DNA from: Alphaproteobacteria bacterium
Lineage (GTDB): Bacteria; Pseudomonadota; Alphaproteobacteria; Bin95
Direction: 5' to 3'
NCBI GenBank assembly: GCA_964291285.2
Contig: OZ219786.1
Coordinates: forward strand, 864,001-928,000
Length of the DNA stretch: 64,000 nucleotides
A program made the translations under genes and the position numbers. The first letter of the stretch is position 1. The number at the start of each line of letters is the position of its first letter. The notes under the pieces are model-generated. The model was not told the DNA's origin. It did no database searches and was given only the letters and a program-made list of their open reading frames with translations. This document shows positions 11,878 to 14,146 of the stretch, piece by piece.

Positions 11878-12831
11878 GGGTGAAGCACCTTTCGGTTGTC
11901 CGGGGCGGAGGGAGTCGAGTTTGCGGCCCCGGGGGCGGAGGGCCAAGCGCGATGTGTCATGTGGATGTCATGGAATGTCATGTTCTGTCATGCGGGCCTG
12001 TCTCCGCCCCGGCCGTTTGCAAGGCATTGCAGCCTCCTTGTCGGTCTGCGGTCCCGGATGCCCCGTTGCCGGAGGAGCGCTCCTCCCGCGCGCATAATGC
12101 GCGTCCGGCCGCGCGTGCGCGCACGTGTGCGCGAAGCGGCGGGGCCGTCCCCTCCACCGTGGATGTCATGTTGTGTCATGGAGGCACGCCGCGGGACCTT
12201 CCTCCCGAGACGCCATCCCGATCCTCTTCCCATCGTGCCCGGACTTGTTCCGGGCATCTCTCCCTGGACCGTTGCAGCGGCGGAAGTGGCAAGTCCGGGC
12301 ATGACGAATGGGAGACGGGGCGGGCCATCCTTCGATACGCGGCCGGCGCCGCTGCTCAGGATGAGGGGAGGGGCCCGCTCCACGGGAATGTCACGAAATG
12401 TCATGATCTGCATGCGCGCGGCGCATATCCTGTGGTCGTTTCAGACATGAGACCACCGTTTGTCTCCCCGCCTCGCCTGCGAGGGAAGGCCGGGGCGGGA
12501 GGCCCTCTCTCGATCCGGCACGGCCTTGCCGGAACGCGCGGCCGCCGGGCCTTCTTTCGGCCCCCTCCGCAGGCGGGAGAGGCGCTTGTGTGGCGGCAGG
12601 CCATCCTGTCGAAGCCGTATTCGCCTGCATCCCGCACATCGTTCCTTCATCCCGTTTCGTTCCCTTTCATTCCCCTCTCCCCGCCGCCGGCCTGCCCGGC
12701 AAGCGGGACCCTGATTCGCGCGTATCGCGCGGGCGCGGGCGGGTGTCGGCGCCGGCGCGGTTCGCGCACCTGATTGCGCCTGCGCCTGCCCGCGCATAAG
12801 GCCGGACGCAGGGCGCACCTTGTATCTCTCC

Positions 12832-12994
12832 GGATCGTTGTTGCAGCTATAGTCGCAACAGCGGGAGCGGACGGGAGACCGCTAGCACCCAGGTTATGAA
12901 GACCGCGGGAGAGCATGGTTCCCCGTCCGCTGTTCCTTTGAACCCGAACAGTCGCTTGGTCCGCAGTGTGAGACCGCATTTGCAAGGACGGGAC
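12832..12994 (+). ncRNA. Predicted IS110 bridge RNA
   Basis: 5' hairpin plus two stem/internal-loop domains. ACAGTCGCT (12948-12956) equals the element right end; GCACC and GGAGAG match the flanking target. RNA ends are approximate. Confidence 0.75.
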
Positions 12995-13927
12995 ATGGAA
13001 CGGATATTCGTTGGCATCGACGTGGCGAAGGATCGTCTGGACGTGCATCTGCGCCCGTCCGGGGAGGCCTTTGCCGTCGCGCGCGACGGCAAAGGCCTGG
13101 AAGAGTTGTCGGCGCGCCTGGGCGGGCTGGAGGTTGCCCTCGTGGTGCTGGAGGCGACGGGCGGCTTCGAGGTCACGGTCGCGGCGGCGCTCTGCGCGGC
13201 GGGCCTGCCATTGGCGGTGGTCAACCCGCGCCAGATCCGGGACTTCGCCCGCGCCACCGGCCGGCTCGCCAAGACCGACGCCCTCGATGCGGCGGCGATC
13301 GCACAGTTCGCCGAGGCGGTCCATCCCGAGCCCCGTCCGGTGCCTGACGAGCAGGCCCGCGCGCTCGCCGAGCTGGTCGCCCGGCGGCGCCAGATCGTCG
13401 CGATGATGACCGCGGAGAGAAACCGCAGGAGGCGCCTCACAAGCCGTCGCACGATCCGCAGCGTCGACCGCGTGCTCGCCACCCTGCAACGCGAACTCTC
13501 CGACCTCGAAACCGAGCTCGGCGATGCGATCCGCAAATCCCCCGCATGGCGCCAGGCCGAGGACCTCCTCAAAAGCGTTCCCGGGGTCGGTGACGCCACC
13601 GCACGAACCCTGATCGCCGATCTCCCCGAACTCGGAACCCTCAGCCGAAGGCGCATCGCCGCGCTCGTCGGCGTCGCGCCCTTCAACCGCGACAGCGGAA
13701 CCATGCGCGGAAAGAGAACCATATGGGGAGGACGCGCCAACGTCCGCGCAACCCTCTACATGGCTGCCCTCACCGCCTCCAGGCATAACCCAACCCTCAA
13801 ACGCTTCTATCGCCACCTGATCGCGGAGGGAAAAACCAAAAAGGCTGCCCTCACCGCCGTCACACGAAAGCTCCTCACAATCCTCAACGCTATCCTCAGA
13901 GACCGAACCCCGTGGAAAACAGCTTGA
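12995..13927 (+). CDS. IS110 transposase/bridge recombinase
   Basis: GIDVAK, EATGG, KTDALDA (DEDD), SVPGVG and DSG (catalytic Ser) motifs. Confidence 0.96.
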
Positions 13928-14146
13928 CCGACAACACAGTCGCTCTCCTGTCGGCTCCCAAAGGTATTTTTCGCGTCGGCGCCAACGCGAAAGACGAAGC
14001 GGCCTCCGGATACCGCTTCGTCCGATTCAATATAACATATGATTTAGATATGTCAATTCATTTTGAGATTTATTGCCAATAATTCGAACAAATGCGTTTG
14101 CCGATCCCGCCGTTGCACGAACGGCCCATACAGACCGAATCCTGGC

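Follow-up and report, generated by a model that had tools for sequence, protein, structure and literature searches.

An IS110-family insertion sequence with a candidate bridge RNA at a short target motif in a multicopy intergenic repeat and in unrelated DNA

When an insertion sequence (IS) lies inside a conserved motif of an intergenic repeat, is the repeat its target or does the element respond to something shorter that the repeat happens to carry? The question is raised by a 64,000-nt stretch of an alphaproteobacterial genome (GenBank assembly GCA_964291285.2, contig OZ219786.1, positions 864,001 to 928,000; G000:C2:864001-928000 in our numbering, hereafter the window), where an IS110-family element splits one copy of a multicopy leader module. 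A preliminary description of the locus had proposed that the element is RNA-programmed against this repeat family, lives as its parasite and probably silences the copy that it entered. We find good reason to believe in an active IS110-family IS with a two-loop bridge RNA; its target, in our best explanation, is a motif of about 12 nt that a minority variant of the repeat carries.

Reading the junctions in window region 12500-14400 placed an element of 1124 bp at 12821-13944 on the forward strand, with one copy of the core dinucleotide counted in. The left flank ends ...GGGCGCAC-CT (CT at 12819-12820) and the element begins with TGTATCTC at 12821; at the other junction, ...ACAGTCG-CT (CT at 13943-13944) is followed by CTCCTGTCGGCT from 13945. 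A BLAST search of the region against the genome found 13 copies, 100% identical across the parts that each of them keeps: nine are whole, three are broken near the 5′ end by other insertion sequences and one lacks the left end. The same exact ends were recovered by exact-string search at 12 left and 13 right termini genome-wide, with all copies starting TGTATCTC behind ...CCT and finishing ACAGTCGCT ahead of CTCC. Comparison of the copies revealed no terminal inverted repeats and a flank consisting of a short CT core, not a longer target duplication. We took CT as the core, as in IS621, and CTCC as part of the target because uninterrupted members of the repeat read so at the insertion place (GCGCAC-CT-CGCC-TG, GCAC-GT-CTCC-CG and GCAC-CT-TTCC-CG).

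The recombinase gene (12995..13927, forward strand; P0001) encodes 310 amino acids, and both of its Pfam matches, to the N-terminal DEDD RuvC-like domain PF01548 (3.4e-24) and the C-terminal transposase domain PF02371 (4.2e-20), exceed the curated cut-offs. With phmmer, the protein aligned over its whole length with the IS621 recombinase of PDB entry 8wt6 (E 1.5e-38), and D9, E53, D95, D98 and S234 correspond to all five catalytic residues D11, E60, D102, D105 and S241 of IS621 (residue list from PMC11208158; the chain numbering of 8wt6 is offset by 2). By sequence, the element is assigned to the IS110 group of the IS110 family and is IS621-like; recombinase domains, catalytic residues and ends agree with the type given in the preliminary description.

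Numbering target positions after IS621 (1-7 left, 8-9 core, 10 onward right), we found the right flank to be CTCC at positions 10-13 in all 13 insertions, position 14 to be C at nine and T at four of them, and position 15 to be G at 10. On the left, position 7 was C at all of the 12 sites available, positions 6 and 5 were A and C at 11 sites each, and position 4 was G at eight. At the window's own site, on the forward strand, the left target GGCGCAC occupies 12812..12818 (positions 1-7, with GCAC at positions 4-7 matching the left target guide described below), the left core copy 12819..12820 and the right target CTCCTG 13945..13950 (positions 10-15). The resulting motif, GCAC-CT-CTCC-Y-G, is about 12 nt long. 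From base composition alone, some 4.5 genome occurrences are expected for the 12-mer GCACCTCTCCYG; perfect matches were found at five free sites (C1:10191, C1:1101870, C3:68650, C3:2018660 and C3:2168080; three in the repeat and two elsewhere) and, counting the pre-insertion state, at five of the 12 insertion sites that are complete. Genome-wide, nine sites of the 11-mer CACCTCTCCYG are occupied and 12 are free.

The 13 sites divide between two kinds of surroundings. Five copies stand at one and the same position (model position 200), in the same orientation, of an intergenic repeat family, which bears out the earlier placing of the target within a conserved motif of the repeat. The other eight lie outside the family in unrelated DNA sharing the motif, three of them in sequence with strong coding periodicity and five not. 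The preliminary description had held that insertions into unrelated sequence would speak for a chance hit; such insertions are found, but their sites share the motif and a chance hit is not what they indicate. The check that it proposed, whether other copies also lie in this motif, shows the motif shared by the sites in the repeat and those outside it, only five of the 13 being within the repeat.

Most copies of the repeat do not carry the motif in full. Compared with the 12-mer, the 86 free copies comprise three perfect ones, 46 with one mismatch, 33 with two, three with three and one with four, the frequent variants having GT, TT or CC as the core or CGCC or TTCC replacing CTCC. The 11-mer CACCTCTCCYG is present in eight of 91 repeat copies, five occupied and three free; without it, occupancy is 0/83. 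Five random insertions among the 91 copies would all fall within those eight with a chance of 56 in 46.5 million. The motif has its largest reservoir, though not its only one, in the repeat, and the element has filled five of the eight permissive repeat copies and eight other sites because the motif occurs in both.

Two unoccupied places in the window had been compared with the insertion site before. The uninterrupted copy 1 of the leader module (2395..2715, forward strand) reads AGCCGACGGGAGACGTGTGTCCT at 2559-2581, exactly as quoted; within it, GGACACAC-GT-CTCC-CG has GT as the core and A at position 4, and the copy is empty because of these two mismatches to the motif. The string GACAGGGGAGGTGCGC at 44240..44255 (forward strand) does match at 15 of 16 positions, its one mismatch being in the right target, and is unoccupied; it is not a member of the repeat family. 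This look-alike sits in a separate four-copy repeat (window 44150-44330), just upstream of an open reading frame (ORF) that starts at 44323 and that by eye resembles the N terminus of an IS630-type transposase.

How might the element recognize such a motif? The 174 nt from its left end to the start codon are predicted to form a 5′ hairpin followed by two modules of stem, internal loop and hairpin (single-sequence fold, z = -2.8). In a consensus fold of 24 relatives, both modules were kept and 13 of the 27 predicted pairs showed compensatory changes, 12 of these in the outer stem of the first module, and the loop segments vary freely. The first module, the predicted target loop, corresponds to 12866..12931 (outer stem at alignment columns 49-64/100-115) and the second, the predicted donor loop, to 12943..12992 (columns 130-182), both on the forward strand, as are all bridge-RNA features given below. 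A search of Rfam 15 gave no match to the bridge RNA, only a sub-threshold sX15 match on the opposite strand.

Already named as the right target guide in the preliminary description, CGGGAGAG at 12906..12913 is the reverse complement of CT-CTCCCG and pairs with CT-CTCCYG at 8/8 target positions, with a G:T wobble at the four of 13 sites that have T at position 14 (CTCCTG). We placed the left target guide, CTAGCACCC at 12882..12890, by analogy with IS621, as 9 nt followed by a 1-nt linker before the inner stem. It pairs at 5/9 positions: only GCACC matches the sites, the last C faces the core T, and positions 1-3 agree with the guide at only 1, 0 and 0 of 12 sites. Next to the right guide, the target loop has the handshake dinucleotide CA (12914..12915); C12914 can pair with donor position 7 (G) and not with target position 7 (C), and G12987 can pair with target position 7 (C) and not with donor position 7 (G). 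In the donor loop, the left guide ACAGTCGCT (12948..12956) is 9/9 identical to the final 9 nt of the element (13936-13944), and the right guide ATTTGCAAG (12978..12986) allows a discontiguous pairing with CT-TGTAT as in IS621, with two pairs, two flipped U, one G:T and four pairs. The donor loop fits the element's own joined ends, ACAGTCG-CT-TGTAT; the donor of IS621 is ACAGTAT-CT-TGTAT. Joining of the ends in a circle would also bring together a −35-like half, TTGACC (13924..13929), and a −10-like half, TATCTC (12823..12828), both on the forward strand and both read from sequence, and would form a putative promoter, TTGACC-17-TATCTC, analogous to the split promoter of IS621 (PMC11208158).

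The bridge-RNA gene is itself a place where other elements have inserted. In four of the 13 IS110 copies, it is broken inside one 30-nt stretch (window-equivalent 12865-12895) by three other kinds of IS, with breakpoints at C3:1143559/1142107, C2:1145258/1147406, C2:1295741 and C3:1703454/1706996. The inserts are 1451 bp long with a 9-bp duplication, 2147 bp long at CTAG within the left target guide, and 3541 bp long with a 5-bp duplication (AGGTT); the 2147-bp insert is whole in one copy, and elsewhere only its end is left, adjoining the copy without a left part. The genome is crowded with insertion sequences, and the CTAG together with local AT-richness is probably the reason for the clustering.

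Whether guides and targets vary together was asked with a set of 80 related loci, encoding recombinases of 60-93% identity, whose upstream regions were aligned. With the window included, loop strands and flanks could be extracted for 72 of 81 sequences; 55 had both flanks and gave 51 distinct guide-and-site combinations representing 32 distinct guide programmes. Over these 32 programmes, the six predicted bases of the right guide matched the right flank in 138 of 192 comparisons, against 81.6 ± 5.2 after shuffling, and the seven noncore bases of the left guide matched the left flank in 107 of 224, against 77.4 ± 5.9; none of 10,000 guide/flank shuffles attained either value. Rows of the Reyranella group, in which the right end is probably mislocated (0-1 matches), were kept, and the test is conservative on that count. 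The covariation supports both guides and agrees with the part of the preliminary description that called the element RNA-programmed; what the RNA would be aimed at is the 12-nt motif, and with eight of 13 copies outside the cassette family, the claim that the family is the target is not supported as worded.

The nearest relative, in an alphaproteobacterial metagenome-assembled genome (G007, with two copies, L001 and L002), shares 91% of the DNA and 93% of the protein sequence and has different guides and flanks: its right guide CGGGGGAG is one base off CGGGAGAG, and the right flank is CCCCCG at both copies. L001, L007, L040 and L042 likewise end the left guide in C where the core has T, most relatives having CT there; at window 12890, this C could represent either a tolerated mismatch or some form of tuning.

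The element was not always present at this place. Its removal leaves GGGCGCAC-CT-CTCCTGTCGGCT, or AGCCGACAGGAG^AGGTGCGCCCT on the minus strand, and this empty site, reconstructed in the preliminary description, was found in two independent sources. Parts of the stretch are carried by 24 public runs, none of them recorded as RNA, and we examined the contigs of four. In run X1, the empty-site sequence was recovered on a contig of 409 nt, of which the first 69 letters equal 12750-12818 and the other 340 equal 13943-14282 (no differences in the 340); it joins 12818 directly to 13943, skipping 1124 bases with two ambiguous letters, the CT of the core, at the joint. The depth of this contig, 354.8, equals that of neighbouring single-copy sequence. 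In run X3, of the same organism and study, contigs span both IS junctions (12750-12841, depth 120; 13930-14327, depth 127). The second source is the genome of a sister species (G006), whose ilvD-like gene is 97% identical to the window's and in which the repeat of the orthologous spacer, between the release-factor and ilvD-like genes, reads GCGCAGGGCGCACCTCTCCTGTCGGCTCCC with no element. From the X1 contig and the empty orthologue, we conclude that the ancestral state was empty and that the insertion is recent or still polymorphic. Between the two alleles, a gain of the element is likelier than a loss, given the lower efficiency reported for excision (PMC13626964). This insertion is recent, being absent in one run of the same organism and in the sister species.

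In the mechanism that we propose, the 5′ noncoding end of the element would encode a bridge RNA with two internal loops. The donor loop would recognize the joined ends ACAGTCG-CT-TGTAT, the element presumably moving as a circular intermediate, and the target loop would pick the site mainly by its extended 8-nt right guide pairing with CT-CTCCYG; a short effective left guide would add GCACC, giving the target of about 12 nt, GCAC-CT-CTCC-Y-G. The motif would be offered by a minority leader variant of the genus-restricted repeat, present in about 90 copies, and by a few unrelated places. We consider RNA-programmed targeting of this motif very probable as the best explanation as a whole.

Several points weigh against this account. 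The poor fit of the left guide implies weaker left RNA pairing than in IS621, and the chosen register rests on analogy; the best left-guide register of L001 and L002 is shifted by one base, and because of this shift and the C opposite the core T, the left-guide assignment is less than certain. The relatives are nonindependent, and the shuffle test overstates significance for that reason. Part of the motif behind the occupancy count was derived from the occupied sites themselves, though the guides predict the same motif too. The contigs attest presence only, and X1 and X3 may each also hold the other allele. Finally, a strict version of the promoter-like pattern is found in only 42 of the 86 copies of the repeat, compared with 1.2 in shuffles, and the spacer in most of these is short (15 nt).

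The repeat is an intergenic family of about 290 nt, for which nhmmer found 86 uninterrupted copies, five split by the element and 15 further fragments. Its consensus starts with an AT-rich stretch, TTGAC(A) and a TATGAT-like hexamer often after TG-n, continues with a hairpin (GGAAGCGGC...GCCGCTTCC), a second GC hairpin and the target motif, and ends in a nearly invariant GC-rich half of 110 nt terminating AGGGTCCC. Behind the leader module lie a ribosome-binding site and an ORF, and in 65 of the 86 copies, 10-nt-phased YATGACAY repeats follow in the same orientation within 900 nt. Because 10 = 1 modulo 3, three ATGACA repeats provide ATG and TGA in every frame, and the cassette ORFs end inside them. 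In four copies, the ORF is intact, 329 residues long and has a small-terminase-type N terminus (Pfam Terminase_2 1.2e-10, PHROG 51 4.4e-12); three copies have an ORF of 192-234 residues belonging to no known family, and most others have truncated versions of these two N termini. Examples of cassettes are window 2395-2990, window 14126-11950 (minus strand), L125:545-1534 and L127:387-965. Of 16 other genomes of the genus, 14 have the module in many copies, and outside the genus it is only marginal; in the orthologous spacer of the sister species, it is present and some 500 nt of the window's further repeat modules are absent.

Within the split copy, on the minus strand, the element divides a proximal leader half (13945..14126, model positions 13-200), containing the AT-rich stretch, the promoter-like site and the first hairpins, from the distal (3′) half that it cuts off (12703..12820, model positions 200-318). 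The promoter-like site, TTGACA-16-TATATT with TG (14029..14056, minus strand; 11/12), was the one found against 0.3 expected in shuffles. If transcription starts near 14022, some 7 nt past the −10 hexamer, the element would begin about 78 nt downstream, antisense to the repeat unit and ahead of the remaining 118 nt of leader, an ORF, further repeat modules and an ilvD-like gene (11946-10174, Pfam ILVD_EDD). That ORF, of 82 codons (12391..12639, minus strand), resembles neither of the N termini above, ends in phased ATGACA repeats and looks like a decayed cargo remnant. Judged by position, the element would physically uncouple the promoter-like site from the rest of the unit, as the preliminary description had pointed out (14056-14029).

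Would that separation amount to silencing, by an element specialized as a parasite of the family? Such a reading holds that the insertion silences the split copy (copy 2), along with the genes behind it wherever these are co-directional. In its favour are the five of 13 copies at the same family position and the family's share of perfect 12-mers in the genome, six of 10. The element, in antisense orientation, separates the promoter-like site from what follows in the unit, and a transcript from about 14022 would have to traverse 1.1 kb of untranslated antisense sequence and would meet, from the repeat side, a weak terminator-like hairpin at 13941-13926. Against these stand the eight of 13 copies outside the family and the mismatches in 83 of the 86 uninterrupted family copies. 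The scan counted one terminator-like structure, below the shuffle mean of 1.8; the ORF behind the leader here looks like a remnant; and by a crude gene call based on third-position GC content, 48 copies of the module point the same way as the next predicted gene and 34 point against it. We regard specialization on the repeat together with silencing as unlikely, and functional silencing of something that matters as similarly doubtful.

What the repeat is, if not simply a target, is the less ordinary part of the locus, and several candidate identities were rejected. The orientation count of 48 against 34 argues against a dedicated gene promoter. A repetitive extragenic palindrome (REP) or bacterial interspersed mosaic element, an imperfect palindrome of 20-40 nt often accompanied by a RAYT transposase, is contradicted by the length of about 290 nt, the promoter-like site and the ORF behind, with no Y1 transposase in the genome. 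For a guide RNA (omega-RNA or palindrome-associated transposable element, derived from IS200/IS605), PF07282 and PF01797 had no matches in the genome and the controls were positive; no TnpB, no Y1 TnpA and no other mobilizing enzyme was identified for the repeat there. Considered as a structured RNA, 81 distinct rows gave −11.4 kcal/mol and 10 pairs with no compensatory change in RNAalifold; in the first hairpin, compensatory variants are visible by eye, and the alignment may explain this null result. A terminator between promoter and target is present in copy 1, but a T run occurs in only three of the 86 copies. Rfam had no match on copy 1, and the plasmid collection none to the repeat.

It is a speculative thought, to which we give little credence, that the repeat may be a new kind of gene cassette and the IS110 element its hyperparasite. 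A cassette would then consist of promoter, leader of about 215 nt, variable ORF and ATGACA block, the bridge RNA would be tuned to the leader and decapitate cassettes, and the mismatches would represent escape from the guide. Consistent with escape, no column of the conserved half exceeds that of the core C in entropy (1.70 bits), and mismatches are present in 83 of 86 free copies. We nevertheless rejected an arms race: the core-C column ranks only 17th of 305 overall, and the 8 nt that the right guide would bind vary no more than the promoter-proximal half.

Two further observations concern the repeat and its surroundings. An IS of about 2 kb with terminal inverted repeats, present in at least about 48 copies in the genome (e.g., C2:1145249-1147415), sits in several places at the distal end of the repeat module (GGG then CTAA..., e.g., C1:257950-258100), which suggests a second element favouring the same repeat. 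A long ORF at window 2988-5171 (forward strand) starts inside ATGACA repeats, and matches to catechol dioxygenase domains are confined to its last 270 or so residues, so that the true gene is probably far shorter; ORFs across the window are inflated by high GC content.

Returning to RNA-guided targeting of the short motif, an alternative is that the recombinase protein itself reads the DNA motif and the complementarity of the RNA loop is incidental. The match of the left guide at only 5/9 positions would fit this, as would target-adjacent DNA structure, which is reported to add specificity in ISPpu10 (10.64898/2026.03.19.712850). The loop and the right flank, however, change together over 32 guide programmes among proteins 60-93% identical, and a single guide base, CGGGAGAG against CGGGGGAG in G007, accompanies the difference between CTCC and CCCC flanks. 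Protein reading of the motif is therefore very improbable in our judgment.

Still less credible is that the five repeat-borne copies arose by duplication of one element-bearing repeat and not by independent insertion. Three of them do have a common left flank of 118 nt with 97% identity, but these 118 nt are the half that hardly varies in any family copy, the copies differ in their right flanks and in what lies beyond, and the window's site is empty in X1 and G006. That an unspecific insertion merely happened to fall in the motif has in its favour only the genome's crowding with insertion sequences and is refuted by the 13 right flanks, all identical over 4 nt and fitting the guide over 5-6 nt, and by the filling of about half of the perfect genome sites, which leaves chance a negligible probability.

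Elsewhere in the window, a 6S RNA gene at 26533-26693 (forward strand; Rfam RF00013, 62.4 bits) was the only such Rfam match above the gathering score.

RNA-programmed targeting of a short motif, if that is what the element does, makes the genome a clean natural data set on bridge-RNA targeting outside Escherichia coli, with 13 identical copies, a legible rule for the sites and, within a single genome, a count of those that are permissive and those that are mismatched, and with two public runs of one organism, X1 and X3, that differ by this very insertion. Two natural variations, the dominance of the right guide in targeting and the recurrence in several relatives of a C facing the core T, may be of use in the design of bridge recombinases.

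Insertion of IS110 elements into multicopy intergenic repeats is already established for IS621 of E. coli with REP and for ISPpu10 of Pseudomonas putida, and the case described here is known behaviour with no new mechanism. For IS621, PMC11208160 gives 144 of 173 experimental insertions in REP and the rest at target-like sites, and PMC11208158 describes the handshake rule, the discontiguous right donor guide and the split circle-junction promoter of its bridge RNA. The present element shares with IS621 the DEDD and Ser recombinase, the CT core, the ends ...CT and TGTAT..., a 5′ bridge RNA with predicted target and donor loops, the discontiguous right donor guide, handshake bases that pair with noncognate DNA only and, here read from sequence alone, a split promoter at the circle junction; as for IS621, a natural target lies in a multicopy intergenic repeat and off-family sites share the motif. 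It differs, in degree, in a right guide of 8 nt, where IS621 has 4 nt, or 7 when extended, and in a left guide that effectively pairs at 5/9 positions with C at the core-T position. Its target repeat is a promoter-bearing leader of about 290 nt and not a 35-nt palindromic REP, only five of the 13 copies are in the repeat, and the two proteins, aligned by phmmer along the whole length, reach only E 1.5e-38.

Among named relatives in the plasmid collection, the ISMno7 family of Methylobacterium nodulans plasmids has the closest recombinase (62.6% identity over 98% of the length), a distance too great for it to be the same element; unnamed relatives come as near as 93% identity and carry other guides. 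ISPpu10 resembles the present element in being an IS110 element that enters copies of one conserved intergenic sequence. According to 10.64898/2026.03.19.712850, its insertions all map to identical copies of that sequence and a stem-loop of the target adds specificity, whereas most family copies here are mismatched and those that the element has entered belong to the permissive minority.

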